Origin: Cupriavidus necator | GTDB lineage: Bacteria; Pseudomonadota; Gammaproteobacteria; Burkholderiales; Burkholderiaceae | Reading direction: 5' to 3' | NCBI RefSeq assembly: GCF_016127575.1 | Contig: NZ_CP066018.1 | Span: forward strand, 3,180,001 to 3,212,000 | DNA: 32,000 nucleotides | Shown: positions 1,503 to 31,113 of the stretch, piece by piece | How positions within the stretch are numbered: the first letter of the stretch is position 1 | Layout: every line of letters begins with the position of its first letter | Translations under genes and position numbers: made by a program | Notes under the pieces: model-generated | The model's input: the letters and a program-made list of their open reading frames with translations, nothing else | Told to the model about the DNA's origin: nothing | Database searches by the model: none

Positions 1503-1841
1503 TCACTTGCGCCGCATTTGCATGACCGTAGGCTTGCCATCAACGTTGTCGAACGTCACGGATACCGCCTCGCCCTCCTTGAAATCCTTCAGCGATGCGC
1601 GATCCTTGACGGGGAACGCCATGGTCATCGGTCCCATGCCGAGGTTGGCGATCGGTCCGTGCCTGAGCGTGACCTTGCCGGCCTGCGCATCGATCTTCTT
1701 GATCTCGGCTGCCACGGGTTGCGGCGCCTGCTGCGCGGGTGCGGACGGCTTCATGTCCATGCCGTCCATCGATCCCGCTGCGAATGCGGCCGGCGTGGTG
1801 GCGAAAGCCAGCGCGAGGGCGAGCGTCTTGATGGAATTCAT
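1503..1841 (-). CDS. cusF: periplasmic Cu(I)/Ag(I) chaperone CusF
   Basis: 112 aa. Signal peptide [21 protein letters not shown], Met-rich GSMDGMDMK, and CusF core [18 protein letters not shown]. The ATG at 1839-1841 overlaps the cusA stop as ATGA (1838-1841). The track extension to 2021 lies inside cusA and is rejected. Confidence 0.9.
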
Positions 1842-4800
1842 AGTGGTTCCTTCTGAAGTGAGGGGTGTACGGAAACTGGTTGAGGTCTGGTCTGGCGCCG
1901 GCGCATCAGCAAATACACCGCCGGCACCACGAAGAGCGAAAGCAATGGCGCGGTGAGCATGCCGCCCACCATCGGCGCGGCAATGCGCTGCATGACCTCG
2001 GAGCCGGTGCCATGCGACCACATGATCGGCACCAGGCCGGCAAGGATGACGGCGACGGTCATTGCCTTGGGGCGCACGCGCAGCACCGCGCCTTCCTGGA
2101 TGGCCTCAAGCAGCGCGGACAGGCTGGCATCGCCCTGGTTCGCGCGCGCGGTCCATGCCTGCTTCAGGTAGAGCAGCATGATCACGCCGAATTCCGCCGC
2201 CACGCCCGCCAGCGCGATGAAGCCGACCACGCCGGCAACCGACAGGTTGTAGCCCAGCAGGTAGAGCAGCCAGAAGCCGCCGATCAGCGCCAGCGGCAGC
2301 GTGCCCATGATGAGCAGGGCTTCATCGAGACGGCCGAACACCAGGTACAGCAGCACGAAGATGATCAGCAGCGTGAACGGCACTACCACCTTCAGCTTTG
2401 CGGCGGCCCGCTCCAGGTATTCGAACTGCCCCGACCAGCTCAGCGAATAGCCAGCCGGCATCGGCACCGCTTTCGCAACGGCGGCCTGCATATCCCGGAC
2501 GGCCGAGCGCAGGTCACGCCCGCGGATGTCGACATACACCCAGCCCGACAGTCGCGCATTTTCGCTGCGCAGCATCGGCGCTCCCTGCACCACCTGGATG
2601 CGCGCCAGGTCGGACAGCACGATCTGCTGGCCCTTGTCCGTGACGATGGGCAGGCTGCGCAGTTGCTCCACCGAGTCGCGGTAGTCGCGCGGGTAGCGTA
2701 CGTTGATAGGGAAGCGCGCCAGCCCGTCGACGACCTCGCCCACATTGTCGCCGCCGATGGCCGACGATACCACGCTCTGCACATCCGCGATGTTCAGCCC
2801 GTAGCGGCCCGCCGCCACGCGATTGATGTCGATATCGACATAGCGCCCGCCGCTCAGCCGCTCGGCCAGTGCCGACGTCACCCCCGGCACTGTCCTGACG
2901 GCTTCCTCGATGCGCGTTGCCAGGCGATCGATCTCCTTCAGGTCCGCGCCCGCCACCTTGATGCCGACCGGGCTCTTGATGCCGGTGGCAAGCATGTCGA
3001 TGCGGTTGCGGATCGGCGGCACCCAGATGTTGGACAGGCCCGGCACCTTGACCACGCGATCGAGCTCTTCCACCAGCTTGTCGGTGGTCATGCCGGCACG
3101 CCACTGGTCGCGCGGCTTGAACTGGATGGTGGTCTCGAACATCTCGAGGGGCGCCGGATCGGTCGCGGTATCGGCGCGGCCGGCCTTGCCGAATACGGTC
3201 GCCACCTCGGGCACGGTCCTGATCAGGCGGTCGGTCTGTTGCAGCAGCTGCGCCGCCTTGCCGGCGGAAAGGCCTGGCAATGCCGACGGCATATAGAGCA
3301 GGTCGCCCTCGTCGAGCGGCGGCATGAATTCGGCGCCGGTACGCAGCATCGGCCACGCCGTCGCGGCCAGCAGCACCGCGGCGACCGCAAGGGTGGTCTT
3401 CGGGTAGGCCAGCACCCGTGCCAGCACCGGCCGATAGGCGCGGATCAGCCATCGGTTCAAGGGGTTGGACTGCTCCGAAGGAATCCTGCCGCGGATCATG
3501 TAGCCCATCAGCACCGGCACCAGCGTCACCGACAGGCCCGCCGCCGCGGCCATGGAATAGGTCTTGGTAAAGGCCAGCGGCGAGAACAGCCGGCCCTCCT
3601 GCGCCTCCAGCGTAAAGACCGGGATAAACGACAGCGTGATGATCAGCAGCGAGAAGAACAGCGCGGGCCCGACCTCGGTGGCGGCCCGGCCGATCACGCC
3701 CCAGCGCTCGTTCCCTGCCAGCTCCCGGCCGGGGTTCTCGGCATGCCAGTGTTCCAGCTGCTTGTGCGCGTTCTCGATCATCACGACCGCGGCATCGACC
3801 ATGGCGCCAATGGCAATGGCAATGCCGCCCAGCGACATGATGTTGGCATTGATGCCCTGGTAGCGCATCACCAAAAAGGCGGCCAGCACGCCCAGCGGCA
3901 GCGACACGATCGCCACCAGCGCGGAACGCAGGTGGAACAGGAACAGCAGGCACACCAGCGCGACCACGGCGAACTCTTCGGCCAGCTTGTGTGTCAGGTT
4001 TTCCACCGCGCGCTTGATCAGCGCGGAGCGGTCGTAGGTGGTGACGATCTGCACACCGGCAGGCAGGCTCTTCTGCAGCGTGGCTAGCTTCGCCTTGACC
4101 GCCTCGATGGTTTCCAGCGCGTTCTTGCCTGAGCGCATCACGATCACGCCGCCGGCAACCTCGCCCTGGCCGTCAAGTTCGGCGATGCCGCGCCGCATCT
4201 CCGGGCCGAGCTGGACGATGGCGACATCGCCCAGCCGCACAGGAATGCCGGCATCGCTGGTCACCAGCGGAATCTGCCGGAAATCGTCGAGCGTCTTCAG
4301 GTAGCCGCTGGCGCGCACCATATACTCTGCCTCGCCCATTTCCAGCACCGACCCGCCGGCCTCCTGGTTGGCGCCCCTGAGCGCCGCCAGCACCTTGCCC
4401 TGCGACAGGTTGTAGGCGCGCATCCGGTCCGGCAGCAGCACCACCTGGTACTGCTTCACCATGCCGCCCAGCGAAGCGACCTCGGCCACATTGGGCAGCG
4501 ATTTCAGTTCGAAGCGCAGGAACCAGTCCTGCATTGCGCGCAACTGGCCGAGGTCATGCTGGCCGGTCTTGTCCACCAGCGCGTACTCGTAGATCCAGCC
4601 GACGCCGGTGGCATCCGGCCCCAGCGCCGGCCTGGCCGCGGCAGGCAGGCGGGACTGCACCTGGTTCAGGTATTCCAGCACGCGCGAGCGCGCCCAGTAC
4701 AGGTCGGTGCCATCCTCGAACAGCACATAGACGAACGAATCGCCAAAGAAAGAGTAACCCCGGACCGTCCTGGCGCCGGGCACCGACAGCATGGTGGTGG

Positions 4801-5008
4801 TCAGCGGATACGTAACCTGGTTCTCGACGATCTGCGGCGCCTGGCCCGGGAAGGGCGTGCGGATGATCACTTGCACATCGGACAGGTCGGGGAGGGCGTC
4901 GAGCGGCGTGCTTCGCACCGCCCACAGGCCCCATGCGGTCAGCATCACCGTGGCCAGCAGGACCAGGATGCGGTGGCGGATCGAGGCCAGGATCAGGCGC
5001 GCGATCAT
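1838..5008 (-). CDS. cusA: CusA/SilA-type heavy-metal efflux RND permease
   Basis: 1056 aa from [25 protein letters not shown]4 motif [21 protein letters not shown] length and 12-TM layout. ATG at 5006-5008 overlaps the cusB stop (ATGA 5005-5008). Confidence 0.95.
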
Positions 5009-6549
5009 GGCCGGGCTCCCTGGGCGGTGCCGGCGGGCTCGACCGACGACAGCATGGCCGCGCCGTCGCGGTCCAGGTGGAAGCGGAAGCGGATGCGGTC
5101 GCCAGGCTTCAGTCCCTTGGGCAGGCCTGTCGGCGGCGCGGCGAAATCCATGGTCATCGCACCCCACTGTGCCGACGGGATGGGGCCATGCGAGATGGTC
5201 AGGCTCTCGCTGCCGTTCACGGCTTCGATGCGGCCTGTGCCTTCATGCTCGGCCGATGGTGCGGCAGGTGCGGAGGCCGCAAGCGGGGCGGACATGCGTT
5301 GCGCGCTGCCGCGCAGGCTGGCTTCCGAGTCGATCAGGAACTGGCCGGACGTGACCACTTTCTGTCCCGGCGCCAGTCCGTCCAGCACCTCGACCATGCC
5401 ATCGGCTTCGCGGCCGGTCTTGATCTCAGTGGCAACGAACCCTGCCTGGCCGGCATCGACCATGACGATACTGCGCTGGCCGGTGCGGATGACCGACTCC
5501 GACGGGATCAGCAACGCTTCCTTCTGCGCGCCACTGTCGAAGCCGACCGTGACAAACATGCCCGGCAGCAGGCGCCTGCCGGGGTTGGGCAGGATGATGC
5601 GGGCCTTGACGGTGCGGGTCGCCGGGTTGACGTCGGGAAGGATGGCGTCGACCTTGCCGGCAAGGGGGCTGGCCGTGCCGCCCTGCAGTACCGTGGCCGC
5701 CGCGCCGGGCCGGATGGTGCCGGCCTGGCCCTCTGGTACCTCGGCAATCACCCACACCTGGCTCAGGTCAGCCAGGCGGAACAGCGTCATGCCCGGCGAC
5801 ACGGTCATGCCCTCGCGCACCGCCACCTCGGTCACGAGGCCATCGACCGGGCTGGCGATGGCAACACCGGGCTGCGGCTTGCCGGATCTTTCGACCGCAC
5901 TGACCTGGCCCGGCGTCATGCCTGCCTGCAGCATGCGATTCCTGGCAGCACTGCGCAGGTCGTCCAGATGCTCGCTCGCTGCCATGCGTGACACGGCCAG
6001 GTATTCCTCTTGCGCCGCGACCCAGTCGGGCGAGTACAGGGTGACCAGCGCCTGTCCGCGCCGGACCGGGTCAAGGGTGGCCCGGACCGCGACGTGCTGC
6101 ACAAAGGCGTTGGTGCGCGCCTGGATGACCTGCACGCTGCGTTCGTCGATGGCGACATTGCCGGGCACCTGTAGCATCGCGGCCAGCCGTCCAGGCTTTG
6201 CCTCGGTGGTGCGAATGCCGAGGTTTTGCGCGACATGGCTGTCGACGGTGACACCGCTGCCGCTGCCATCGCCGTCCGCGTAGACCGGCACCAGTTGCAT
6301 CTCCATGAAGGGAGATTTGCCCGGCTTGTCGAAGCGCTGGCCCGGCACCATGGGATCGTGCCAGTACAGGATCTTCCTGCCGGTCTTCGGATCGATGTCG
6401 CCGGCCTTGAGCACGGTGGATTGCGCGCCAGCCGTGCTCGACGGTTGCGCAGTCTGTGTGCCGCGCGTGAACCCGAAGTGGTAAGCGCCGTAGAGGGCGA
6501 TGCCGGCGACGACCAGCCCGGCTGCTGCTGCAATGATGTGCTTCTTCAT
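5005..6549 (-). CDS. cusB: CusB/SilB-type periplasmic adaptor with a fused C-terminal CusF-like domain
   Basis: 514 aa from [16 protein letters not shown], with GGAGG just upstream. N-terminal [29 protein letters not shown] motif. The last 81 aa (5005-5250) contain [18 protein letters not shown]. The start overlaps the cusC stop (ATGA 6546-6549). Confidence 0.9.
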
Positions 6550-7847
6550 TTTGCCTCCCTCACTGCGGCTTCGGCCTGGGCGGTAGGCAATGGCACCAGG
6601 TAGTTCAGGTCCGCCCACAGCTTCGCGGTCTTTGCCTCAAGCAGCAGGCGATCCATGGCGGTGTCGATGGCGCGATGGTTGGCTTCGGCGACCGCCGCCA
6701 AGGTGCCCGTGCTGGCGCGGTAGGCCGTCAGTGCCGCATCCGCCTGTGCCCGCGCGAGCGGCAAGGTCTTGTCGTCGTAGCGCCGCAGCCGGTCAAGGTT
6801 GCGCTGCAGCTCGGCCAGCCTGGCGCCGACCATGGCCTGGGTATTGCGCCGGACCATTTCCAGCCTGGCCCGCGCGTCATTGGCCTGCGCCAGCCGCGCA
6901 CTGATTTCGCGGTCCTGGCGGTTGCCCCGGTCCCACGGCAATGGGAAGCTGACATTGAGCGAGCCCATGTTCGAGTAGGCCGAGCCGCGCTGGCTGTACA
7001 TCAGCTCGACCGTCACGTCCGGCTTGCGGGCTTCCGTTGCCACCTGGATCTCCGATTCGGCCAGCGCCACGTCGCGCTGCGCAGCCGACAGTTCGGGCAC
7101 GGCCTCGAACTCGCCCCTGGCGAGTTGCCGGGCGCCCGGCGGCACTTCAAGCGGTGGCCGCGCCGACAGCGGGCGCCGCGCAGCGGCGCCGACCCAGCGC
7201 TCCAGGTTCAGCGTGGCCGTTGCCAGCGCGGCGCGGTTCTCGTCCTCGCGGTCGTGCAGCTTCTGGATTTCCAGCTCCATCGCCAGTACCTCCGCACGCG
7301 AGCCGCGCCCGCCGCGGTAGGCCGCGGTGGCGGCCTGCAGCGCCAGTTCAAGCGGATGGCCGTGATGGCCGAGCAGCACGCCGGCCTGCTCCGCATACCA
7401 CCGGTCGAGCCAGGCATTGACCGCATTGCGCTGCACGCCTGCCAGCCCCACTGTGCGCTGCGCGTCGGCAGCGGCGGCTTCGGCTTCGAAGCGCGCGGCC
7501 CTGGCGCGGCGCTTGTCCGCGCGCGTGAATTCCTGCATCACCGAGATCGAGCGCATGGTCATGGAATCCCGGCTCAGCGAGAACGCGTCCGAGCCGTTGA
7601 CCGGCACGTTGTTGACGCCGAGCTTGAGCACGGGATCCGGCAGGCGGCCGGCGGCGACGGCCATTTGCCCGGCGGCCTCCACGGCGCCGCGCGACGATTC
7701 GGCGTCGCCGGCATGGGCGCTCGCGATCGCGACGGCTTCCTCAAGGGAGAGGGAAGGGGCGGATTGCCCGGGCGCGCCTTGCGGCGCAGCCAGGCCGATT
7801 GCGGGCGCGCTGAGCAGCGCCACGGACAGGTGACGTAGAAAAAGCAT
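6546..7847 (-). CDS. cusC: outer-membrane efflux factor (CusC/CzcC-like, TolC family)
   Basis: 433 aa from MLFLRHLSVALLSAPAIGLAAP, with GGAGG (revcomp of 7852-7856) upstream. Typical OMF coiled-coil repeats. No lipobox cysteine in the signal peptide. Confidence 0.88.
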   Translation of the reverse strand: MLFLRHLSVALLSAPAIGLAAPQGAPGQSAPSLSLEEAVAIASAHAGDAESSRGAVEAAGQMAVAAGRLPDPVLKLGVNNVPVNGSDAFSLSRDSMTMRSISVMQEFTRADKRRARAARFEAEAAAADAQRTVGLAGVQRNAVNAWLDRWYAEQAGVLLGHHGHPLELALQAATAAYRGGRGSRAEVLAMELEIQKLHDREDENRAALATATLNLERWVGAAARRPLSARPPLEVPPGARQLARGEFEAVPELSAAQRDVALAESEIQVATEARKPDVTVELMYSQRGSAYSNMGSLNVSFPLPWDRGNRQDREISARLAQANDARARLEMVRRNTQAMVGARLAELQRNLDRLRRYDDKTLPLARAQADAALTAYRASTGTLAAVAEANHRAIDTAMDRLLLEAKTAKLWADLNYLVPLPTAQAEAAVREAK

Positions 7848-7916
7848 AAAGCCTCCAGGGACGACGACTGCTGCCCGCATGGAAGCAGGCAGCACCAGGT
7901 GACGTCGAGCCGGAGG

Positions 7917-16686: not shown

Positions 16687-18960
16687 ATGAACAGGACAAG
16701 CAACGAACGCGATGCAACCGAGCCTGGCCGCCACAGCGCCGGTGCACATGGCTCGACTCAGGACCAGTCCGGTCCTGTTCATCACGAGCATGCGCATCAC
16801 CATGACCATGTTCATGAACCGGCTGGCACTGGAGCCGGGGCGGCGCAGCCCGCTGCCGAGGGAACGATTTATACCTGTCCCATGCACCCGGAGATCCGCC
16901 AGGATCATCCCGGCAACTGCCCCAAGTGCGGCATGGCGTTGGAACCGTTGTTGCCGGAACTGGATGAAGGCGAGAACCCCGAGCTGGTGGATTTCCGTCA
17001 CCGCTTCTGGTGGACGCTACCGCTCACCGGTGTGGTGTTCGTCATGGCCATGTTCGGGCATCGTCTTGGCTGGATGGAGGTGTCGACCCAGAGCTGGGTC
17101 GAGCTTGCGCTGGCGACGCCTGTGGTGCTGTGGGCAGGCTGGCCGTTCTTTGTGCGGTGTTTCCACTCGATCGTCAACCGTAGTCCGAACATGTGGACGC
17201 TGATCGGAATCGGCACCGGTGCGGCCTATGTCTACAGCGTCATTGCGACCGTCATACCTGGCGCATTTCCGCAGGTGTTCGCCGAGCATGGCCGTATCGG
17301 TGCCTACTTCGAGGCAGCGGCGGTGATCATTTCCCTCACGCTGCTGGGTCAGTTGCTTGAACTCAAGGCCCGCTCCCAGACTTCCGCCGCCATCAAGTCG
17401 CTGCTGGGACTGGCGCCCAAGACGGCGCGGCGTATCGGTCCCGACGGCGCCGAAGAGGACGTGCCGCTCGCCCATGTCCACGTGGGCGACCTGCTGCGCG
17501 TGCGGCCCGGCGAGAAGGTGCCGGTCGATGGCGTGGTAACGGAAGGCACCAGCGCGGTCGACGAATCGATGATCACTGGCGAGCCCATTCCGACCACCAA
17601 GCGCGTCGGCGACCGCGTCATCGGCGCCACGATGAACACTTCGGGCAGCCTTGTCATCCAATCCGAAAAGGTCGGCTCCCAGACCGTGCTGTCCCAGATT
17701 GTCCAGATGGTGGCGCAAGCGCAGCGATCGAAGGCACCGATGCAGCGGATGGCCGACCAGGTTGCCGGCGTCTTCGTCGTCGGTGTCATCGGCATTGCGG
17801 TGCTGACCTTTGTCGCGTGGGGACTCTTCGGCCCCGAGCCGAGCTGGGTGTTCGGACTGATCAATGCCGTCGCGGTGCTGATCATCGCATGTCCGTGCGC
17901 GCTGGGTCTCGCCACGCCGATGTCCATCATGGTTGCAAGCGGGAAGGGCGCTTCCAGCGGCGTGCTGTTCCGCGACGCCGCTGCAATCGAGAACCTGCGC
18001 AAGGTCGATACCCTGATTGTCGACAAGACCGGGACGCTTACCGAGGGTCGGCCGGCTTTTGAGCGCGCGATCGGCACCAATGGCTATGCCGAGGAGGACA
18101 TGCTGCGGTTAGCTGCCAGCCTGGATCAGGGCAGCGAGCATCCCCTGGCTGCCGCGATTGTTGCAGCAGCCCGTGAGCGCGGCCTGCAGTTGGAAAAGCC
18201 GGAGGGCTTCGAGTCGAGCTCCGGGATTGGGGTAAGAGGCAAGTTGGGAGGCAGCAAGGTCGCGATCGGGAATACTGCGCTCATGGAAGCCGAAGGCGTT
18301 CCCATCGATCCGCTCGTGGCGCAGGCCGATGAGCTGCGGGCGCAAGGCGCCAGCGTGATGTATCTTGCCGTCGATGGCAAGCTTGCTGGCCTGCTCGCCG
18401 TTTCGGATCCGGTCAAGGCCACCACGCCGGAGGCGCTGGCGCATCTCAGGGGAGAAGGTATCCGTGTCGTGATGGCGACCGGCGACGGGATTGCGACGGC
18501 GAAGGCGGTGGCCGGGAAACTTGGCGTTGACGAGTTCCACGGCGAGGTGAAGCCGGCGGACAAGCTTGAACTTGTCAGTTCGCTGCAACAGGCAGGCGCG
18601 GTGGTGGCGATGGCGGGCGACGGCATTAACGATGCGCCGGCGCTGGCGAAGGCCGACGTCGGTATTGCCATGGGCACGGGCACTGATGTCGCGATGAACA
18701 GCGCTCAGGTCACGCTGGTCAAGGGGGATTTGCGCGGGATTGCCCGTGCCCGGAAACTCTCGCAAGCGACCATTCGAAACATGAAGCAGAACCTCGGTTT
18801 TGCGTTCGTTTATAACGCATTGGGCGTTCCGCTGGCGGCGGGCGTTCTGTATCCAATGACAGGCCTGTTGTTGTCGCCCATGATTGCGGCGCTGGCGATG
18901 AGCCTGAGTTCTGCCTCGGTCATTACCAATGCGTTGCGGCTCAGGAAGGCTGCGACGTGA
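16687..18960 (+). CDS. Cu(I)/Ag(I)-exporting P1B-type ATPase (CopA/SilP-like)
   Basis: 757 aa. CPC in TM6 ([12 protein letters not shown]), [15 protein letters not shown], and [11 protein letters not shown]...MSLSS. The N-terminus is His-rich ([12 protein letters not shown]) and carries [22 protein letters not shown] in place of a CxxC HMA domain. Confidence 0.93.
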
Positions 18961-21055: not shown

Positions 21056-22819
21056 CTACCAGCCAAAGCGATAGTCCCTGGTCGGATGCAGCCACCACTT
21101 TCCGTTCCCGGGCAGTTCCAGCACCTGGTGGTGGAACTTCAGCAGCGTGGGCCGGTGGCTGACGCTGACAAGCGTCGACTGCATGTCGGCCAGCAACTGG
21201 TACATGGCTTCCTCATTGCTGATATCCAGGGCACTGGTCGCTTCGTCCAGCATGACATAGCGCGGCTTTGACAGCAGTACGCGGGCGATGGTCAGCCGCT
21301 GCTGCTCGCCAAGGGACAGGACTTTGCCCCAGTCCACTTCCGTGTCCAGGCCGCCAAAGCGGCCGGCGATGTCCTTCAGGTTGACCGCTTCCAGCAGCTT
21401 CAGAAGCTCCTCGTCAGGGATCCGCTGGCCGATGTGGTTCGGGTATAGCAACTGGCTGCGCAGGCTGCCGACCACCATGTAAGGATGCTGCGGCAGGAAC
21501 AGCATTTCCTGCGGCACTGGCCGCACGATGCATCCCGTGCCGTTGTTCCACAATCCGGCGATCGCGCGCATCAGCGAACTTTTGCCGCCGCCGCTGGCGC
21601 CGACGATAAGAAGGCCCTCTCCCGGGTTGACCGACAGCGTCAGGTCGGTGACCAGCGTTCGCTCCTGATTCGGCGTGCGCAAGGTCACATGTTCCAGCGC
21701 CAGGCGGGAGTCATGGATGGACTCGATCGTGGTGGCCGGCTTCACGGAGGCTGCTGCCGTCCCGGTCAGCGAGATGGAGAATGTGTCCAGTCGATCCAGC
21801 CCCGCCACGAAGCGGCTCAGGTCTTCAAAGTTGTCGACGATCACGGTCAGCGCGTTCAGGATGGCGGCGAACGCGCCGGCCGCCTGGATGGCGCTGCCGA
21901 CTTCAAGCTCGCCGGAAAGCACGCGTGAAGCGACGATGGCGCTGGGCAGCAGGATGGTCAGGAAGCCATAGGCATACTGGAACATGTTCAGGCTCAGCTG
22001 CCACTTGATGAGCCGGTCGAAATTCTGGAAGGCCTTGCCAAAACGGCCTCTCACATGGGATGACTCCAGCGCCTCGCCGCGATAGAAAGCGATGGACTCG
22101 GCGTTCTCACGCACCCGGATCAGGCTGAAGCGGAAATCCGCCTCCCGCCTTAGCTGGAAGAAGTTCAGGCCGATCAGGACGCGGCCGAAGAAGAAGATGG
22201 AGACAAATGTACCGGCAATGGCATAAATGACAAGAAAGTAGACCAGCTCTCTTGAGATCGACCACAGGACGGCGCTGAAGGCGATGAGCTGCAGCAGCGC
22301 GCCGATACCGATTGAAAGGAAGAACAGGGATTGCCGCGTGAAGGTATTGATGTCCTCGGCGATGCGCTGGTCCGGATTGTCGATCGCGGCATCTGAATTG
22401 AGCTTGTAGTAGACCCGGCCCTTGAAATACCCGTCCAGATAGTGATGCGTCAGCCAGCGTCTCCAGAGCAGGCTCAGCTTGTTCCTCAGGTAGTAATAGA
22501 CCGCGTAGATGGGGACGGCAACCATCAGGATATAGAGACACTTCCTGATCGAGGCCCAGAAACGATCCGCGTCTTGCGCTGCCAGGGCCGAGGTGAATTC
22601 ACCGGTTTGCTGGACGATCAGTACCTCGGTCTGGGTCTGGCCCAACAGCAGCAGGATCAGCAGGACCAGCAAGCCGGAGGCTTTCCATTTTTCCCGCGAG
22701 AACCAGTAAAGTTTTGCAATGGCCCAGTATCGGGTCCACACATGCCGGGTGGAAGTGACGGGACGTTTCCCTGGGGCCGAAGTGGTGCCGGTGACCCGCG
22801 ACTCAGGAACGGCGCTCAT
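21056..22819 (-). CDS. ABC half-transporter (fused permease-ATPase), ABCD/SbmA-BacA-like
   Basis: About 587 aa. N-terminal TM domain, Walker A GASGGGKSS, signature LSLGEQQR, Walker B YVMLDEATSALD. Start is ambiguous: ATG at 22819 (MSAVPES) or the track start at 22861. Confidence 0.85.
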   Translation of the reverse strand: MSAVPESRVTGTTSAPGKRPVTSTRHVWTRYWAIAKLYWFSREKWKASGLLVLLILLLLGQTQTEVLIVQQTGEFTSALAAQDADRFWASIRKCLYILMVAVPIYAVYYYLRNKLSLLWRRWLTHHYLDGYFKGRVYYKLNSDAAIDNPDQRIAEDINTFTRQSLFFLSIGIGALLQLIAFSAVLWSISRELVYFLVIYAIAGTFVSIFFFGRVLIGLNFFQLRREADFRFSLIRVRENAESIAFYRGEALESSHVRGRFGKAFQNFDRLIKWQLSLNMFQYAYGFLTILLPSAIVASRVLSGELEVGSAIQAAGAFAAILNALTVIVDNFEDLSRFVAGLDRLDTFSISLTGTAAASVKPATTIESIHDSRLALEHVTLRTPNQERTLVTDLTLSVNPGEGLLIVGASGGGKSSLMRAIAGLWNNGTGCIVRPVPQEMLFLPQHPYMVVGSLRSQLLYPNHIGQRIPDEELLKLLEAVNLKDIAGRFGGLDTEVDWGKVLSLGEQQRLTIARVLLSKPRYVMLDEATSALDISNEEAMYQLLADMQSTLVSVSHRPTLLKFHHQVLELPGNGKWWLHPTRDYRFGW

Positions 22820-23999: not shown

Positions 24000-25418
24000 T
24001 CAGGCCGCCGCGGGGCGCGGCAGCGGCCGTGCCGGCGCGGGTGCGGCTTGCGCCGGCTCGCTGACCGGCAGTGTCATGCCGATCCGGATCGCGTCCGCCT
24101 GCACCTGCGCGAACACGCTGCCGCCGTGCATGGTGGCGATTGCCTTGACGATGGCCAGCCCCAGTCCGTGGTTCTGCCGGCTGTCGCTGCGCGCGGCGTC
24201 GGCGCGGTAGAAGCGATCGAACAGCCGCTCGGGCCGGATCGTGTGCAGGCGATCGGATTCATTGCGCACGGCGATGGTCAGCGTGTCCGCCGATTGCGCG
24301 ATCGTGACCGTCACCGGCCGCCCGGGCCGGCCGTGCTGCAGGGCGTTGCTCATCAGGTTGGTCAGCGCGCGCTGCAGCAGCGAGACGTTGACGCGCACGC
24401 GTGCATCGCCGGTCACGTGCAGCGTGGCGCCGGCTTCCTCGAACAGCATGTCGAGGAAGTCCGCGCTGCGCCGGACTTCCTGGGCGACCGAGACCTCGAC
24501 CAGGTCGCGCGCCAGCGCCCCGCGGTCGGACTGCGCCACGAACAGCATGTCGATCACGATGCGGCTCAGGCGCTCCAGGTCTTCCAGGTTGGACTGCAGG
24601 ATCTCTTCAAGCTGTTCGGTGCTGCGCGGGCGCGACAGCGCCACCTGGGTCTGGCCGATGACATTGCCCAGCGGCGTGCGCAGTTCGTGCGCGACGTCGG
24701 CATTGAAGGCGGATAGCTGCTGGTAGGCGTGCTCGAGCTTGTCGAGCGCGCCGTTGAAGGCATGCACCAGGCCGCCCAGCTCGGCGGGCAGGTCGGCGTC
24801 GGGCAGGTGCTCCAGCTGCTTGGGGTCGAGCGCGCCGGCATGTTGCGACAGGCGCTCGATCGGCGCCAGGCCGGACTTGGCAATGCGCCAGCCAAGCAGG
24901 CTCACCGCGATCACGCCGAGCACCGACGACATCACCAGGGCGATGCCAAGCGTGCGGCTGGTCTCGAAGAATGCCGCCTGGTCCACCGCGACCGCGAGCG
25001 CCACCTCGGGGCGATCATTCAGCGCCGGGATGCGGCGCTTCAGCATCAGGAAGCGGTGGTCGCCGAACTCCACCGCCCACACGTCGGGTGCGCGCGGGCT
25101 GGTGTCGGCCTCGCGCGGGAAGGGCTCGCCGTAGTCGAAGCGGCGGTCGGTACTTTCGACAAAGTAGCGCACGCTGTGATCGGCCGGCGTCAGGGTGCGC
25201 AGCATGGCGGCAAAGTGCTCCCATTGCTTTTCGGTGCCCAGGCCCGCGGCCTTGGTGCCGGCCAGGTCGAAGCGGGCGCGGATCTCTCCGAGCTGGCGCT
25301 TTTCCAGTTCCACGCACTGCACGCGGTACAGCACCATGCCGGTGACGGTGAAGACCAGGGCTGCCGCCAGCCCGAACATGGCGGCCAGCCGCGCCGCGAT
25401 CGAGCGTTGCCGGTTCAT
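24000..25418 (-). CDS. heavy-metal-family sensor histidine kinase (CusS/CopS/CzcS class)
   Basis: 472 aa. Two TM segments flank a periplasmic domain of about 130 aa. H-box FNADVAHELRTPLGNVIGQTQVALS. C-terminus FDRFYRADAARSDSRQNHGLGLAIVKAIATMHGG. The start overlaps the regulator stop (ATGA 25415-25418). Confidence 0.92.
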   Translation of the reverse strand: MNRQRSIAARLAAMFGLAAALVFTVTGMVLYRVQCVELEKRQLGEIRARFDLAGTKAAGLGTEKQWEHFAAMLRTLTPADHSVRYFVESTDRRFDYGEPFPREADTSPRAPDVWAVEFGDHRFLMLKRRIPALNDRPEVALAVAVDQAAFFETSRTLGIALVMSSVLGVIAVSLLGWRIAKSGLAPIERLSQHAGALDPKQLEHLPDADLPAELGGLVHAFNGALDKLEHAYQQLSAFNADVAHELRTPLGNVIGQTQVALSRPRSTEQLEEILQSNLEDLERLSRIVIDMLFVAQSDRGALARDLVEVSVAQEVRRSADFLDMLFEEAGATLHVTGDARVRVNVSLLQRALTNLMSNALQHGRPGRPVTVTIAQSADTLTIAVRNESDRLHTIRPERLFDRFYRADAARSDSRQNHGLGLAIVKAIATMHGGSVFAQVQADAIRIGMTLPVSEPAQAAPAPARPLPRPAAA

Positions 25419-26098
25419 GCGCTCAATCCGTCGCGGTGCTCCAGCACGTAACCCATGCCGCGGATGGTATGCAGCAGCTTGGCTTCGCCGGGCCAGTCCA
25501 GCTTGGCGCGCAAACGCTTGACCGCAACTTCGACCACGTTGGTGTTGCAGTCGAACGAGATGTCCCAGACCAGTTCCGTGATCGCGGTCTTGGACACGAT
25601 CTGCGCCTGCCGCCTGGCCAGCACCGACAACAGCGTGAATTCGCGTGCGCTCAGTTCCAGGCGCCGCGTGCCGCGCGTGGCGCGCCGCGACAGCAGGTCG
25701 ATGCGCAGATCGCCCACGGTCAGCTGCGACGGCTCAGTCTGCCGGCCGCGCCGCGTCAGCACGTTGAGCCGCGCCAGCAGCTCCAGAAAAGAGAAGGGCT
25801 TGGACAGGTAGTCGTCGGCGCCGGCATCGAAGGCATTGAGGCGGTCATCCAGGTCGTCGCGCGCGGTCAGCATCAGCACCGGGGTCTGCTGCTCGCGGCG
25901 CAGGGACTTCAGCACCGAGACGCCATCCAGCGCGGGCAGCATCACGTCGAGCACGATCGCGTCGTAGGGCTCGGTACAGGCCAGGTGCAGGCCGTCCACG
26001 CCGTTGTGCGCGGTATCGACTACGTAGCCATTCTCGGACAGGCCGCGGCGCAGGTAATCGACCGTCTTGATCTCATCTTCGACCAGCAAGAGTTTCAT
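25415..26098 (-). CDS. heavy-metal-family OmpR-type response regulator (CusR/CopR class)
   Basis: 227 aa. MKLLLVEDEIKTVDYLRRGL, phospho-acceptor context IVLDVMLP, and a winged-helix C-terminus. Colinear with E. coli CusR as I recall it. Confidence 0.93.
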   Translation of the reverse strand: MKLLLVEDEIKTVDYLRRGLSENGYVVDTAHNGVDGLHLACTEPYDAIVLDVMLPALDGVSVLKSLRREQQTPVLMLTARDDLDDRLNAFDAGADDYLSKPFSFLELLARLNVLTRRGRQTEPSQLTVGDLRIDLLSRRATRGTRRLELSAREFTLLSVLARRQAQIVSKTAITELVWDISFDCNTNVVEVAVKRLRAKLDWPGEAKLLHTIRGMGYVLEHRDGLSA

Positions 26099-26148: not shown

Positions 26149-26166
26149 CCTGTCAATCCTGTCAGT
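26149..26166. promoter_or_regulatory. tandem direct repeat CCTGTCAat-CCTGTCAgt (9-bp phase) upstream of the regulator operon
   Basis: CCTGTCA at 26149-26155 and again at 26158-26164. It lies 50 bp upstream of the regulator ATG. A minus-strand TATATT (26123-26128) sits between the repeat and the gene. A near-identical tandem occurs at 31096-31113. Confidence 0.5.
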
Positions 26167-26294
26167 TTCCCGGTGCCGCACCGAAGCTGTGCGGCCAGGC
26201 CTTGCGGCGCGCGCTCCGCAAGCATGACAGGAGCACGTGCCGCTTTTGTTCACACTGGTGGAAAAGACTGTTTGAAGACGCGCCGCCGCTCCAG

Positions 26295-26323
26295 CCTGAC
26301 GCAATTGTCAGCGTTGCGTCAGG
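26295..26323. promoter_or_regulatory. perfect 10-bp inverted repeat upstream of the small repeat-protein gene
   Basis: CCTGACGCAA (26295-26304) and TTGCGTCAGG (26314-26323) flank the spacer TTGTCAGCG, which contains another TGTCAG. TAGACT (26344-26349) is a possible -10. Confidence 0.4.
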
Positions 26324-26399
26324 GTGGCGTCGGCTGCGCTCCCTAGACTCCATGCGTGCCCGGCCGGGCCGGTTTTCCCACTTGCACAGGAGTCCTTCC

Positions 26400-26684
26400 A
26401 TGACCTCACCCAAGCGATCCCACCACCACGACAGCACAGGCCACCGTTCCGCGCTGCTGCGCGCCCTGATCCCGACCTTGCTGATGATGGTCGGCGCAAG
26501 CATTTCGTTGTCGGCCAAGGCTGCACCGCGGGCCGTTGACCCGTATACCGATGGCGCGGCCAGCGCGGCGACAGCCAAGGGCCGCTTCGATGTGTACAGC
26601 GACGGCGCCCGGGTGCGTGAACCGCGCGACACGTACACGGACGGCGCGCGCAGCGAGCCACGGCCCGCTGACGCGAACGGCTGA
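26400..26684 (+). CDS. small secreted protein with three D-x-Y-(T/S)-D-G-A repeats
   Basis: 94 aa. AGGAG lies 7 nt upstream of ATG 26400. Signal peptide LLRALIPTLLMMVGASISLSAKA-AP. The mature part of about 52 aa contains DPYTDGA, DVYSDGA and DTYTDGA. High GC at third codon positions. The longer track ORF from 26133 is rejected. Confidence 0.7.
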   Translation: MTSPKRSHHHDSTGHRSALLRALIPTLLMMVGASISLSAKAAPRAVDPYTDGAASAATAKGRFDVYSDGARVREPRDTYTDGARSEPRPADANG

Positions 26685-26715
26685 GCCCCGCAGCCCACCA
26701 CCACCCATGCAGCCA

Positions 26716-29700
26716 TCACGGCCTGCCATTAGGTGTGGCAGCGCCCGGCACCGCCGCCAGGGGCCGGCGATAGCGGGACAGCCGGTCCAGCGCGAGGTAG
26801 ACCACTGGCGTGGTGAAGAGCGTCAGCGCCTGGCTGAGCAGCAGGCCGCCTACCACGGCCACGCCCAGCGGCTGGCGCAGTTCCGCGCCGGTGCCGAAGC
26901 CCAGCATCAGCGGCACCGCGCCCAGCAATGCGGCCAGCGTGGTCATCATGATCGGGCGCAAGCGTGTGAGCGCCGCCTCGTAGATCGCCTGGCCGGCGCT
27001 GATGCCGCGGGTGCGCTGCGCCGCCAGCGCAAAATCGATCAGCAGGATGCCGTTCTTCTTGACGATGCCGATCAGCAGGATCACGCCGATCAGCGCCATG
27101 ATGGAAAAGTCGAACCCGCCCAGCCACAGCAGCGCGAGCGCGCCAATGGCCGCCGACGGCAGCGTGGACAGGATCGTCAGCGGATGCGCCAGGCTTTCGT
27201 AGAGCACGCCAAGGATGATGTAGACCGCCAGCAGCGCCGCCAGGATCAGCCAGGGCTGCCCGGCCAGGGCCTCCTGGAACGCCTGGGCCGAACCCAGGAA
27301 CGTGCCCTGGATGGCGGCCGGCATGCCGATGCGCTGCCGTACCTGCTCCAGCCGTGCCACCGCATCGCCCAGCGGTGCGCCCGGCGCGAGGTTGAAAGAC
27401 AGGTTGACCGCAGGGAGCATGCCGTGGTGCAGGATCGAGACCGGCCCGGCGCCCGGCGGCGCGATGCTCGCCACCGCGGCGAGCGGCACCATCTCGCCCG
27501 ACAGCGGGGATCGCAGGCGGAACGACTGCAGCGTCTCGATATGCCCGCGCCCGTCGTCGTCGACTTCAAGCACCACCTGATACTGGTTGGTGTCGGTCTG
27601 GAACTCGTTGATCTGGCGCTGCCCGAAGGCGTTGTAGAGGGCCTCGTCGATATCGGCTGAGGTGAGACCCAGCCGCGCTGCCGCCGCGCGGTCGATGCGC
27701 ATGCGGATGACATTGGCGCCGAGCTGCAGGTCGCTGGACAGGTCGCGGTAGAGCGGCTCGCCTTGCAGCGCGCTGGTGAGCCGCTGCGACCACGCATAGA
27801 GCTCGGCGGTTTCGTTGCCCTTGAGAACGTACTGGTACTGGGCCCGCGGCTGCCCCGCGCCGATGTTGATGTCCTGTGCTGCGCGCAGGTAGAGCCGGAT
27901 GCCCGGCACCGCGGCCAGCCTGGGCCGCAGGCGGTCGATCAGGCCGCTGGCCGAGACGTCGCGGTCGGAACGGTCGTTGAGCACGATCCAGAAGCGGCCG
28001 TTGGCCAGGGTCTGGCTGCCGCCGGTCATGCCGACCGAATGGGTGACCGTCAGCACGGCCGGGTCGGCAGCGATGATGTCGGCGAGGGCGCGATGCTTGG
28101 CGACCATGTCCGCATGGGGGATATCCGCCGCCGCCTGCGAGGTGCCCAGCACGAATGCGGTGTCCTGCAGCGGGAAGAAGCCCTTGGGGATCAGCACGAA
28201 GCCTGCCACGCTGGCGCATACCGTCAGGCCGAACACCGCCAGCACGCGCGCCTGGCGCCGCAGGCACCAGCGCAGCCCGGCTGCGTAGCGCTGCCCCAGC
28301 CACGTGGACAGGTCCGCCTGGCGCGCGCCCGTATCGTGATGCGCCTTGCGCATGGCGATGCCCGCCAGCGCGGGCGCCAGCGTCAGCGACACCACCACCG
28401 AGATCAGTATCGCCATCGCCGAGGTCAGCGCGAATTCGCGGAAGAGGCGGCCCACGACCCCGGACATGAACAGCAACGGGATAAACACCGCCACCAGCGA
28501 CAGGCCGATCGACACTACCGTGGGCCCGACCTCGGCCACGCCGCGGCGCGCGGCCTCGCGCAGGCCGAGTCCGGATTCGCGGTAGCGGTGGATGTTCTCC
28601 ACCACCACGATGGCGTCGTCGACGATAAAGCCGACCGCCACCACCACCGCCACCAGCGTGAGATTGTTCAGGCTGAACCCCATCAGGTACATCGCCGCGC
28701 AGGTGGCCGCCAGCGACACGCCCAGCACCGCCGTCACGATCAGCGTGGCCGACCACTCGCGCAGGAACAGCGCCATCACGCCGATCACCAGCATCACAGC
28801 GATCAGCAGGGTCAGCTCGACCTCGTGCAGCGAGGCGCGGATGGTGCGGGTACGGTCGTTCAGGATCTCCACGCGGACATCGGCGGGCAAGGCACGCCGC
28901 AGGGACGGCAGCGCTTCGTTGATGCGATCGAAGGTCTGCACGATGTTGGCGCCGGGCTGGCGCATGACGGCGAGCGCCACGCCCGGCCGGCCATTCGGAA
29001 AGCCATTGACGTAGGCGTCTTCAGGCCCGACCGCAACCCGCGCGACGTCTTTCAGGAATACCGGGCCGCCGTTGCGCCAGGCCACGACAAGCTCGCGATA
29101 GTCGTCCGGTTCCAGCAACTGCCCATTGGTCTCCAGCGTGCTGACGCGCGCCTCGCCGTACAGCGCGCCCTTGGGCGCGTTGCGGCTGGCCGCGCGGATT
29201 GCGCCGCGGACGTCGGCCAGCGTCAGGCCCACGCCGGCCAGCGCCGCCGGCGAGGCCTGCACACGGATCGCGGGGCGGCGCAGGCCGGTGGCGTTGACCA
29301 GCCCCACGCCCGGCAGCTGCCCGAGCTGGCGCACCAGCACGCGCTCGGCGTAGTCGCTGACTTCGGTCAGCGGCAGCGTGTCAGAGGTGATGCCAAGGAT
29401 CGCCACCGGACTGTCCGCGGGATTGACCTTGCGCCAGGTCGGCATTGCCGGCATGTCCGGCGGCAGCCGGCTGGTGGCGCGGTTGATGGCCGCCTGTACC
29501 TCTTGCACGGCGCTGTCGAGCCGGGTCTCCAGCGTGAACTGCAGCACGATGGTGACCGAGCCCAGCGCACTGGTCGAAGTCATCTCGGCAATGCCGGGGA
29601 TTGCGCTGAACTGCACTTCGAGCGGTGTGGCAACCGACGAGGCAATGGTGTCCGGGCTGGCGCCGGGCAGCAGGGCGTTGACCTGGATGGTTGGCACTTC

Positions 29701-29832
29701 GGCTTCGGGCAGCGGTGCCACCGGCAGCCGGAAATATGCGGCCGCACCCAGCAGCACCAGGGCGGCAGCCAGCAAGGCGGTGCCGATCGGGTGATCGATG
29801 CACCAGCCATATAGCGAAGAGGATGATTTCAC
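26716..29832 (-). CDS. RND efflux permease, hydrophobe/amphiphile (AcrB/MdtC-like) type
   Basis: 1038 aa from GTG 29830-29832 (VKSSSSLYGWCIDHPIGTALLAAALVLLG), 1 nt after the adaptor stop. TM4 GFIVDDAIVVVENIHR is the multidrug-type motif rather than the metal-type one. The track ORF extension to 30174 overlaps the adaptor gene and is rejected. Confidence 0.9.
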   Translation of the reverse strand: MKSSSSLYGWCIDHPIGTALLAAALVLLGAAAYFRLPVAPLPEAEVPTIQVNALLPGASPDTIASSVATPLEVQFSAIPGIAEMTSTSALGSVTIVLQFTLETRLDSAVQEVQAAINRATSRLPPDMPAMPTWRKVNPADSPVAILGITSDTLPLTEVSDYAERVLVRQLGQLPGVGLVNATGLRRPAIRVQASPAALAGVGLTLADVRGAIRAASRNAPKGALYGEARVSTLETNGQLLEPDDYRELVVAWRNGGPVFLKDVARVAVGPEDAYVNGFPNGRPGVALAVMRQPGANIVQTFDRINEALPSLRRALPADVRVEILNDRTRTIRASLHEVELTLLIAVMLVIGVMALFLREWSATLIVTAVLGVSLAATCAAMYLMGFSLNNLTLVAVVVAVGFIVDDAIVVVENIHRYRESGLGLREAARRGVAEVGPTVVSIGLSLVAVFIPLLFMSGVVGRLFREFALTSAMAILISVVVSLTLAPALAGIAMRKAHHDTGARQADLSTWLGQRYAAGLRWCLRRQARVLAVFGLTVCASVAGFVLIPKGFFPLQDTAFVLGTSQAAADIPHADMVAKHRALADIIAADPAVLTVTHSVGMTGGSQTLANGRFWIVLNDRSDRDVSASGLIDRLRPRLAAVPGIRLYLRAAQDINIGAGQPRAQYQYVLKGNETAELYAWSQRLTSALQGEPLYRDLSSDLQLGANVIRMRIDRAAAARLGLTSADIDEALYNAFGQRQINEFQTDTNQYQVVLEVDDDGRGHIETLQSFRLRSPLSGEMVPLAAVASIAPPGAGPVSILHHGMLPAVNLSFNLAPGAPLGDAVARLEQVRQRIGMPAAIQGTFLGSAQAFQEALAGQPWLILAALLAVYIILGVLYESLAHPLTILSTLPSAAIGALALLWLGGFDFSIMALIGVILLIGIVKKNGILLIDFALAAQRTRGISAGQAIYEAALTRLRPIMMTTLAALLGAVPLMLGFGTGAELRQPLGVAVVGGLLLSQALTLFTTPVVYLALDRLSRYRRPLAAVPGAATPNGRP

Positions 29833-31095: not shown

Positions 31096-31113
31096 CCTGT
31101 CAGGGCTGTCAGG
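31096..31113. promoter_or_regulatory. tandem direct repeat CCTGTCAgg-GCTGTCAgg (9-bp phase) upstream of the adaptor-RND operon
   Basis: CTGTCAGG at 31097-31104 and 31106-31113. It lies 56 bp upstream of GTG 31039. A minus-strand TATAAA (31058-31063) sits between the repeat and the gene. Same orientation and phase as 26149-26166. Confidence 0.5.

Follow-up and report, generated by a model that had tools for sequence, protein, structure and literature searches.

A CopQ-like gene divergent from a heavy-metal-type two-component system in Cupriavidus necator, and the predicted role of its repeat peptide in the periplasm

What is the role of a small, apparently exported protein that carries three copies of a seven-residue motif and is encoded back to back with a two-component system of the heavy-metal type? 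The question is raised by a gene at positions 26400 to 26684 of a 32,000-nucleotide stretch of Cupriavidus necator DNA (NCBI RefSeq assembly GCF_016127575.1, contig NZ_CP066018.1, positions 3,180,001 to 3,212,000 of the forward strand), the whole of which we refer to as the window. The answer that we favor, with a probability of roughly 60%, is that the protein is induced by the adjacent response regulator (RR) and acts in the periplasm as a disordered, aspartate-rich protectant or weak cation binder, rather than as a chelator of copper or silver. Its gene is a further member of the CopQ-like family, which has already been described, and not a new kind of system. The gene and the parts of its product are as follows:

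26400..26684, plus strand: CopQ-like pre-protein gene of 94 codons, with ATG at 26400 and stop codon at 26682-26684; its translation is MTSPKRSHHHDSTGHRSALLRALIPTLLMMVGASISLSAKAAPRAVDPYTDGAASAATAKGRFDVYSDGARVREPRDTYTDGARSEPRPADANG
26388..26392, plus strand: Shine-Dalgarno sequence AGGAG, 7 nt 5′ of the ATG
26400..26522, plus strand: signal peptide, residues 1-41, with cleavage predicted after A39-K40-A41 by sequence reading and the -3/-1 rule
26523..26681, plus strand: mature 53-residue chain, APRAVDPYTDGAASAATAKGRFDVYSDGARVREPRDTYTDGARSEPRPADANG, with 7 Asp, 2 Glu, 7 Arg and 1 Lys and without His, Cys or Met
26538..26558, plus strand: repeat 1, DPYTDGA, from the motif scan and ortholog conservation
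26589..26609, plus strand: repeat 2, DVYSDGA, with a conserved R-F just before it, from the same two sources
26628..26648, plus strand: repeat 3, DTYTDGA, with a conserved R just before it, likewise

Translation and a motif scan bore out the coordinates, the three heptads and the linkers of 10 and 6 residues given in a preliminary description of this DNA; that description had put the mature chain at about 52 residues, and predicted cleavage after residue 41 leaves 53. The pattern D.[YF][TS]DGA has three matches in the six-frame translation of the window, all within the small gene, compared with 0.003 expected from composition. The D-to-D distances between heptads are 17 and 13 residues, and the spacer lengths are conserved across the group of orthologous genes (orthogroup) to which this one belongs, as is a C-terminal P-A-D-x-N-G tail. 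For the family as a whole the modal spacing is 12-13 residues, and 17 also occurs.

A chance frame in GC-rich DNA, or the shadow of an antisense open reading frame (ORF) at 26162-26719, might also present itself as such a gene, as GC-rich DNA gives many long ORFs and neither Pfam nor NCBIfam offers a match. The GC content at third codon positions (GC3) of the small ORF, 0.81, was dropped as evidence of frame; it does not discriminate, because the antisense ORF uses the same third codon positions. The plus-strand frame is decided by homology and by the ratio of nonsynonymous to synonymous substitution rates (dN/dS). Over eight orthologous loci this ratio is 0.18 in the mature part, so that the repeat region appears to be under purifying selection, 0.31 in the segment comprising the Arg-Arg motif, hydrophobic (h) region and c-region, and 0.80 in the N-terminal stretch. 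The antisense ORF, moreover, would cross intergenic DNA that indels have scrambled in the orthologs. With the similarity to CopQ and MmrQ and the 1,140 or more family clusters described below, the spurious-frame explanation is effectively refuted, and by these comparative measures the ORF is a genuine gene.

The start site and repeats are similarly well preserved. Both AGGAG and ATG are invariant between the window, Cupriavidus sp. SK-4 and C. necator, and seven of the eight orthologous loci keep the GGAG core and the ATG, the exception being C. gilardii, where the start codon lies elsewhere; the SK-4 DNA holds no other in-frame start ahead of the hydrophobic core. Conservation of the repeat in homologs, a check proposed in the preliminary description, was found throughout: all 11 close homologs, which come from Cupriavidus wherever the source is named, retain three repeats and also the C-terminal P-A-D tail. 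The exact 94-residue allele is recorded on 76 contigs, including several named strains, and is annotated as a gene in a 4.05-Mb chromosome (GCA_051903385.1). An Rfam scan of the window gave no match.

For family membership, the C. metallidurans CH34 genome paper provides the definition: CzcJ, MmrQ and CopQ, and then MmmQ, MmtQ and MmsQ, have a signal sequence followed by three to four RDXXTDG repeats with defined spacers, were found solely in Cupriavidus and Ralstonia, and are encoded by genes that are strongly and differentially induced by metals, with metal-specific responses among paralogs (PMC2864759). CH34 has 21 copQ homologs, and as of 2020 the family was termed "poorly characterised" (PMC7563307). 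We considered as named members CopQ, CzcJ, MmrQ, MmmQ, MmtQ, MmsQ and PrsQ (PrsQ1 and PrsQ2 in strain NA4). The window protein carries three copies of the defining motif, (V)DPYTDG, (F)DVYSDG and (R)DTYTDG, with the defined spacers and a predicted signal sequence. In BLASTP it matched CH34 CopQ at E = 2e-8, CH34 MmrQ at E = 2e-11 and a database-named CopQ of C. agavae at E = 9e-17; CH34 CopQ had been located by the gene order of the cop cluster on pMOL30 (L059:8359-8595) and CH34 MmrQ by its position beside nreB and nccA (L005:4037-4282), while CzcJ, the third protein intended for this similarity test, was not retrieved. We therefore have very little doubt, from sequence similarity and motif architecture, that the protein belongs to the family, as the preliminary description had supposed in pointing to the CopQ/CzcJ/MmmQ group.

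A profile of the mature region, searched against 5.8 billion proteins, retrieved at least 1,140 clusters; among the best 120 matches, all named ones were from Cupriavidus or compost metagenomes, and several were named CopQ. In a scan of one genome per species (185,579 genomes), with patterns biased to the orthogroup, all 52 confirmed loci lay in Cupriavidus or Ralstonia, and the same two genera accounted for 168 of the 169 records found by tblastn on plasmids and chromids.

If the protein is CopQ-like, what chemistry does the repeat offer? Across 135 members the unit reads G-K-[RF]-D-[PV]-[YF]-T-D-G-A-[RK], usually in three to four copies with a 12-13-residue period. Asp(0) and Gly(+5) are fixed, and Asp or Glu at +4 and Ala at +6 are nearly always present. 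The preliminary description had called Asp, Tyr and Asp-Gly-Ala invariant in the window motif; across the family the aromatic position is Tyr in 65% of units and Phe in 35%, and this interchange means that the Tyr hydroxyl is not essential. Mature chains of the family contain 14.9% Asp, 13.2% Gly, 11.7% Ala, 9.9% Arg and 9.5% Thr, compared with 0.3% His, 0.1% Cys and 0.7% Met, and 78 of the 135 members have none of these last three. Absence of the three from the window member argues against buffering of the soft metals Cu(I) and Ag(I), and the D...D-G pair in each unit, flanked by Arg or Lys, favors weak binding of hard or borderline divalent cations, or shielding. The prototype, CH34 CopQ, is an exception, having GHSMG, AHSMG and GHSIG linkers between its D-P-[YF]-T-D-G cores, unlike most members, the window protein included, in which His and Met are absent. 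This suggests a scaffolding role for the conserved core, with metal preference, if any, residing in the linkers.

No fold was predicted for the mature chain. AlphaFold2, given 74 sequences, returned a mean predicted local distance difference test score of 58 and a predicted template modeling score of 0.21, with helices only at the signal peptide (residues 14-35 of the pre-protein) and a short Ala-rich linker, and a profile search of the PDB found no relative at E <= 10; the mature chain is probably disordered on its own, to judge from this model. Neither the window protein nor any of six diverse relatives scored above cut-off against Pfam or NCBIfam models. One family member scored 20.1 bits against PF03495, under the cut-off of 25, and the window protein had no match to it. 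Sub-threshold matches to YbgS, antiholin and anthrax PA Ca-binding models were treated as noise or as a chemical hint only.

The same properties bear on the view that the peptide protects the envelope without any metal, as a hydrophilic, disordered shield or chaperone-like chain that spares porins, lipopolysaccharide or peptidoglycan under metal or other envelope stress. In its favor are the lack of His, Cys and Met in the window member and in 78 of the 135 family members, the near-neutral charge, the Tyr/Phe interchange and the lack of a predicted fold, as well as the co-induction of an OmpC-like porin with the CopQ-like gene prsQ2 in C. metallidurans NA4S (PMC7380067). On the other hand, the invariant D...DG pair of each unit resembles a cation-binding loop, one member has the weak, sub-threshold likeness to a Ca-binding domain, the His- and Met-rich linkers of CH34 CopQ suggest metal contact, and the paralogs respond metal-specifically. 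We regard a wholly metal-independent role as unlikely.

Variants of the repeat architecture occur among loci of Ralstonia (L021, L025, L027, L028, L030, L034, L039, L040) and Cupriavidus (L026, L033, L038, L047, L050). Some members are expanded to 7-10 units (KFDPYTEGA...), and in a separate subfamily the units take turns with a different repeat, IVAGLDRTGVSA(S/E)P(A/S)R. Genes of a Ralstonia subfamily with YGYPVPN at the C-terminus are in every case accompanied, about 3 kb upstream, by an OmpR-type regulator that is about 36% identical to the one in the window. Some CopQ-like proteins of about 94-117 residues (P0099, P0114, P0120, P0256) are named 'hydroxyquinol 1,2-dioxygenase' in NCBI or UniRef, and one so named, of 94 residues, clusters with the window protein at >= 90% identity; this looks like a propagated misannotation.

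How would the peptide reach the periplasm? The N-terminus of the window protein reads as a signal peptide, with basic n-region residues K5, R6, R16 and R21, a 17-residue h-region, ALIPTLLMMVGASISLS, and A-K-A before the predicted cleavage site, and its h- and c-regions are conserved and constrained; SLSAKAAPR is kept by all orthologs save for a K/R exchange (SLSA[KR]AAPR in the 11 close homologs). The His-rich N-region noted in the preliminary description, SHHHDSTGH, is present, but the segment evolves almost neutrally (dN/dS 0.80) and is missing from most orthologs, and so carries no functional weight.

The leader itself has been altered in the window lineage. Orthologs have an Arg-rich leader of about 62 residues with RRA[LMV][LI] ahead of the h-region; in the 11 full-length orthologs this motif is mostly preceded by T-x, and A-K/R-A lies in the c-region. 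With its twin Arg, weakly hydrophobic core and basic c-region residue, the long leader looks like a substrate of the twin-arginine translocation (Tat) route. In the window the leader is shortened to 41 residues by a 63-bp in-frame deletion relative to SK-4 and C. necator (junction at about 26450-26454, with CGCGCG microhomology on the flanks), which removes 21 residues including the RRA[LMV][LI] kept in all 11 full-length orthologs. By the junction, codon 21 (26460-26462) specifies Arg (LLRAL) in place of a conserved His (LLHAL), a change that may compensate for the lost positive charge. Since the Tat motif S/T-R-R-x-hydrophobic-hydrophobic has no counterpart in the window protein, which reads H-R-S-A-L-L without a twin Arg, export of this allele is more likely to be Sec-dependent than through Tat. 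In the family at large, RR-x-hydrophobic-hydrophobic occurs within the first 60 residues of 19 of the 135 members.

The question of control turns on the surrounding genes, which are arranged as follows:

25415..26098, minus strand: heavy-metal-type RR of the OmpR family, divergent from the small gene (TIGR01387, 289.6 bits, above cut-off)
24000..25418, minus strand: heavy-metal-type sensor histidine kinase (TIGR01386, 386.5 bits, above the curated cut-off)
26716..29832, minus strand: RND permease of MdtB/MuxB (HAE) type, convergent with the small gene; its product has 1038 residues in L060
29834..31039, minus strand: membrane-fusion protein (MFP) of MdtA/MuxA type, belonging to the same pump, from family scans

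A hydropathy scan places transmembrane segments of the kinase at residues 11-31 and 156-178; the periplasmic loop between them has about 124 residues. At all ten orthologous loci the RR (95-99% identical) and the kinase (73-97%) adjoin the small gene in divergent orientation. The pump, by comparison, is complete only in the window and in SK-4, and the other orthologous loci have remnants of it or none, so the conserved unit consists of kinase, regulator and small gene. Other family members are generally not beside a heavy-metal-type two-component system. Gene order thus marks this orthogroup, found in C. necator, C. oxalaticus, C. gilardii and relatives, as the fixed divergent partner of one such system; in C. 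metallidurans, the species in which the family has been studied, no close ortholog turned up.

Pump loss has also touched the window lineage, which is 96% identical to SK-4 at the DNA level. The outer-membrane factor (OMF) gene, which in SK-4 comes next after the permease gene and codes for 492 residues (L001:2705-4324), is wholly deleted, about 1.6 kb with its junction at 26692-26709, and as a result the RND gene ends 31 bp from the stop codon of the small gene. The leader and OMF deletions are inherited in many assemblies and are therefore not artefacts. All that is left of the pump at the C. necator loci L003 and L007 is a piece of the OMF gene plus the final ~510 bp of the RND gene, and several other orthologous loci have no detectable pump. 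The most distant ortholog, that of C. gilardii (L012:5875-6261), has a shifted start, a degenerate fourth unit (RDRFSDSAH) and a weakened third unit (FTQGG); it retains the operator box and TAGACT hexamer described below and the adjacent regulator and kinase.

These losses could indicate that the window lineage carries a relic, impaired in export or function. The two deletions relative to SK-4 point that way, as do the retention of RRA[LMV][LI] in all 11 full-length orthologs and the erosion of the pump in several lineages. Yet the gene keeps an intact frame, Shine-Dalgarno sequence, ATG, h-region and cleavage site as well as its three repeats, and the kinase and regulator are also intact; four basic residues, including the one gained by the H-to-R change, still precede the h-region, enough for Sec targeting; and the allele is stably inherited on its 76 contigs. 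Decay of the allele is accordingly very unlikely in our assessment.

The constancy of the two-component system raises another possibility, namely that the peptide is a feedback co-sensor, induced by the RR and binding the 124-residue periplasmic loop of the kinase, in the presence or absence of metal, and thereby tuning the signal or switching it off. In favor of this are the retention of the two-component system with the small gene at ten of ten loci while the pump is mostly lost, the divergent orientation, and the half-sites in common, with unlinked paralogs lacking the box (see below). In SK-4, however, the small gene is intact beside a broken kinase, so that the two are separable, which argues for a role beyond kinase feedback. 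Most family members, in addition, have no kinase beside them, and kinase modulation is therefore not the general function of the family; nor does the protein resemble CpxP, ZraP or Spy in sequence or structure. A co-sensor function is unlikely on balance. A more elaborate form is quite improbable, in which the orthogroup is no metal buffer but a dedicated signalling partner, an unstructured, regulator-induced peptide that sets the gain of the system by binding the sensor loop of the kinase, alone or bridged by a cation, with ancestral Tat export by the long leader and the pump as an optional addition; if true, it would be the first mechanistic role for any CopQ-like protein.

What breaks the kinase is a premature stop in frame at codon 213, within the HAMP region, found in two independent data sets, the SK-4 ortholog (L001:1-1368) and Logan run SRR29904085 (L002:1-747). 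Its context is DLPA*LCGL, compared with DLPAELGGL in the window, and regulator and small gene are both intact.

The promoters of the small gene, the regulator and the pump hold the following candidate elements:

26296..26322, strand not assigned: candidate RR operator CTGACG-CAAT-TGTCAG-CGTTG-CGTCAG, a 6-4-6 inverted repeat with a direct repeat 11 bp further, near-invariant in the eight loci aligned
26150..26165, strand not assigned: CTGTCAATCCTGTCAG, half-site direct repeat and putative autoregulation site about 52 bp upstream of the regulator gene, present in all orthologous loci
31097..31112, strand not assigned: CTGTCAGGGCTGTCAG, a further copy of that direct repeat, some 58 bp 5′ of the pump MFP gene
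26344..26349, plus strand: TAGACT, a -10-like hexamer, invariant in all eight loci aligned

The half-site [C/T]GTCAG is common to the promoters of regulator, pump and small gene, in a differing arrangement at the last. CTGTCA-N3-CTGTCAG has two matches in the 32 kb, those at the regulator and pump promoters, where 0.03 are expected, and none of 100 shuffles gave two. The eight aligned orthologous intergenic regions have a mean column identity of 52% and many indels, and the conserved islands in them are the small-gene box, the RR-proximal repeat and TAGACT. Every one of the ten orthologous loci has both operator-like patterns, which are absent from the 48 other loci scanned (about 560 kb). SK-4 has the pump-promoter repeat too, ahead of its MFP gene. 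In C. necator loci that have lost MFP and RND genes, CTGTCA-N4-TGTCAG persists as a relic where the pump promoter used to be (L003:9732-9747, L004:9732-9747, L007:7560-7575). The link to the adjacent kinase locus drawn in the preliminary description is thus upheld by strict synteny and by an operator-like motif in common.

In layout the box matches the binding site of AgrR, a C. metallidurans regulator discussed below: both are 6-4-6 inverted repeats with a direct repeat alongside, and of the 12 positions specified in the AgrR box, ATKACANNNNTGTMAT, CTGACGCAATTGTCAG agrees at 9. Scanning the window with the AgrR consensus at up to three mismatches, however, gave 14 matches where 11 are expected, no excess over chance, and support for the operator therefore comes from phylogenetic footprinting. 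Similarly, TGAC-N6-GTCA is unique in the window yet expected 0.36 times, and so is not significant alone. The only other cluster of [C/T]GTCAG half-sites in the window, at 21159-21170 (CTGACGCTGACA), is inside an SbmA/BacA-like ABC transporter gene and is probably a chance match.

From the position of TAGACT, transcription would start near 26356, about 7 nt after the hexamer, which would put the box at about -60 to -34. As TAGACT has no good -35 element in front of it, the promoter would appear to depend on an activator. A simple terminator scan found nothing. Taken together, footprint and synteny make it probable that the small gene is controlled by the adjacent regulator.

In the mechanism that we infer, the kinase would sense a metal or envelope signal in the periplasm, and the RR would bind [C/T]GTCAG half-sites at three promoters, its own, that of the pump where present, and that of the small gene; at the last, the inverted and direct repeats would let it activate a promoter without a -35. 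The pre-protein would be exported and cleaved after Ala41, and the resulting 53-mer, with its three R-x-D-x-[YF]-[TS]-D-G-A units, would accumulate in the periplasm. There the paired Asp carboxylates, framed by Arg and Lys and with one aromatic residue per unit, may weakly bind hard or borderline divalent cations or shield envelope components, so that the peptide would serve as a stoichiometric protectant and not as an enzyme. This reading draws support from the presence of two further metal systems in the window, a CusCBA-type heavy-metal RND system (1838-7895, minus strand), whose MFP has an HMBD at the N-terminus and a CusF domain at the C-terminus, and an HMBD-containing heavy-metal P-type ATPase (16687-18960, plus strand). 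A search for the [C/T]GTCAG repeat box at the cus and P-type ATPase promoters of the window found no copy.

Several points weigh against the protectant or weak-binder reading. With 9 acidic and 8 basic residues, the mature chain is nearly neutral in charge, unlike a strong cation chelator. Metal induction is known solely for paralogs in another species, and CopQ and CzcJ were undetected in a CH34 proteome. No promoter of the sigma-70 consensus type emerged from a simple scan. AgrR has no close ortholog in the regulator of the window, and the operator analogy is one of layout, not of orthology. Finally, the leader of the window lineage is shorter by 21 residues that include the conserved twin Arg, and its pump is without an outer-membrane factor, so the local system may be partly degenerate.

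The locus is of use for studying a family whose genes are among the most strongly metal-induced of C. metallidurans and for which we found no mechanism in the literature searched. Paralog redundancy hampers genetics in CH34; the window locus is simpler, with one RR and kinase, one adjacent target and a recognizable operator, in a well-sampled lineage with close relatives labelled C. necator. Natural variants are at hand in the form of the shortened leader, the SK-4 kinase stop and loci with and without the pump, and the scarcity of His, Cys and Met in most members narrows the candidate chemistry.

How, then, does this locus compare with known systems? At the level of chemistry, the tandem short acidic loops ending in D-G recall Ca-binding loops (EF-hand-like, thrombospondin type 3, anthrax PA domain 1), but in place of the central Asp of DxDxDG loops the repeat has Tyr or Phe, and the analogy is chemical only. 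At the level of gene layout, the nearest parallels are cpxP-cpxRA and zraP-zraSR of Enterobacteria, in each of which the gene for a small periplasmic protein is divergent from, and induced by, an envelope or metal two-component system. CpxP acts on CpxA, and ZraP on ZraS, as feedback partners, and both are folded, helical proteins. The window locus shares their layout and possibly their feedback logic; there is no relation in sequence or fold, the window protein being a repeat peptide with no predicted fold.

Within the CopQ family, the protein is typical in its signal peptide, in its three R-D-x-x-T-D-G cores at a 13-17-residue period, in its genus-restricted distribution and in its setting amid metal-resistance genes. 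It differs from CH34 CopQ, with its GHSMG linkers, in having linkers without His or Met, and its orthogroup differs from the C. metallidurans members in the P-A-D-x-N-G tail, the unusually long Arg-rich leader and the strict linkage to its own two-component system.

The closest regulatory parallel is AgrRS of C. metallidurans. There the CopQ-like gene prsQ2 is a direct target of activation by AgrR, whose site at -65 to -35 combines a 6-4-6 inverted repeat with a half-site direct repeat; AgrS-inactivating mutations turn on prsQ2 and confer silver resistance in NA4S, and both PrsQ1 and PrsQ2 are required for the silver-resistant phenotype (PMC7380067). In a silver-resistant mutant prsQ2 is up 507-fold. 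The kinase stop in SK-4 recalls these AgrS-inactivating mutations. In CH34, agrRS diverges directly from agrABC (PMC10127602). We rejected the idea that the adjacent regulator is the AgrR ortholog (Rmet_1751): the best 120 matches, all >= 67% identical, include no C. metallidurans protein, and the gene layout differs. Its own orthogroup comprises five Cupriavidus clusters with identities of 90-96%, after which the next matches drop to <= 73%, and the regulators of the CH34 chromid and pMOL30 fall below about 58%. In both systems, a heavy-metal-type OmpR-family regulator beside a non-HME RND pump controls, here by inference, a CopQ-like gene. They differ in that prsQ2 is unlinked to agrRS, whereas the window target adjoins its regulator; in that agrRS is divergent from agrABC, whereas the window pump is co-directional with RR and kinase, with the small gene between them; and in the half-site, which is TGT[C/A]AT for AgrR and [C/T]GTCAG for the putative binding site in the window. 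We thus treat the activation of prsQ2 by AgrR as a precedent for how the window locus may work, by analogy, and not as the same system.

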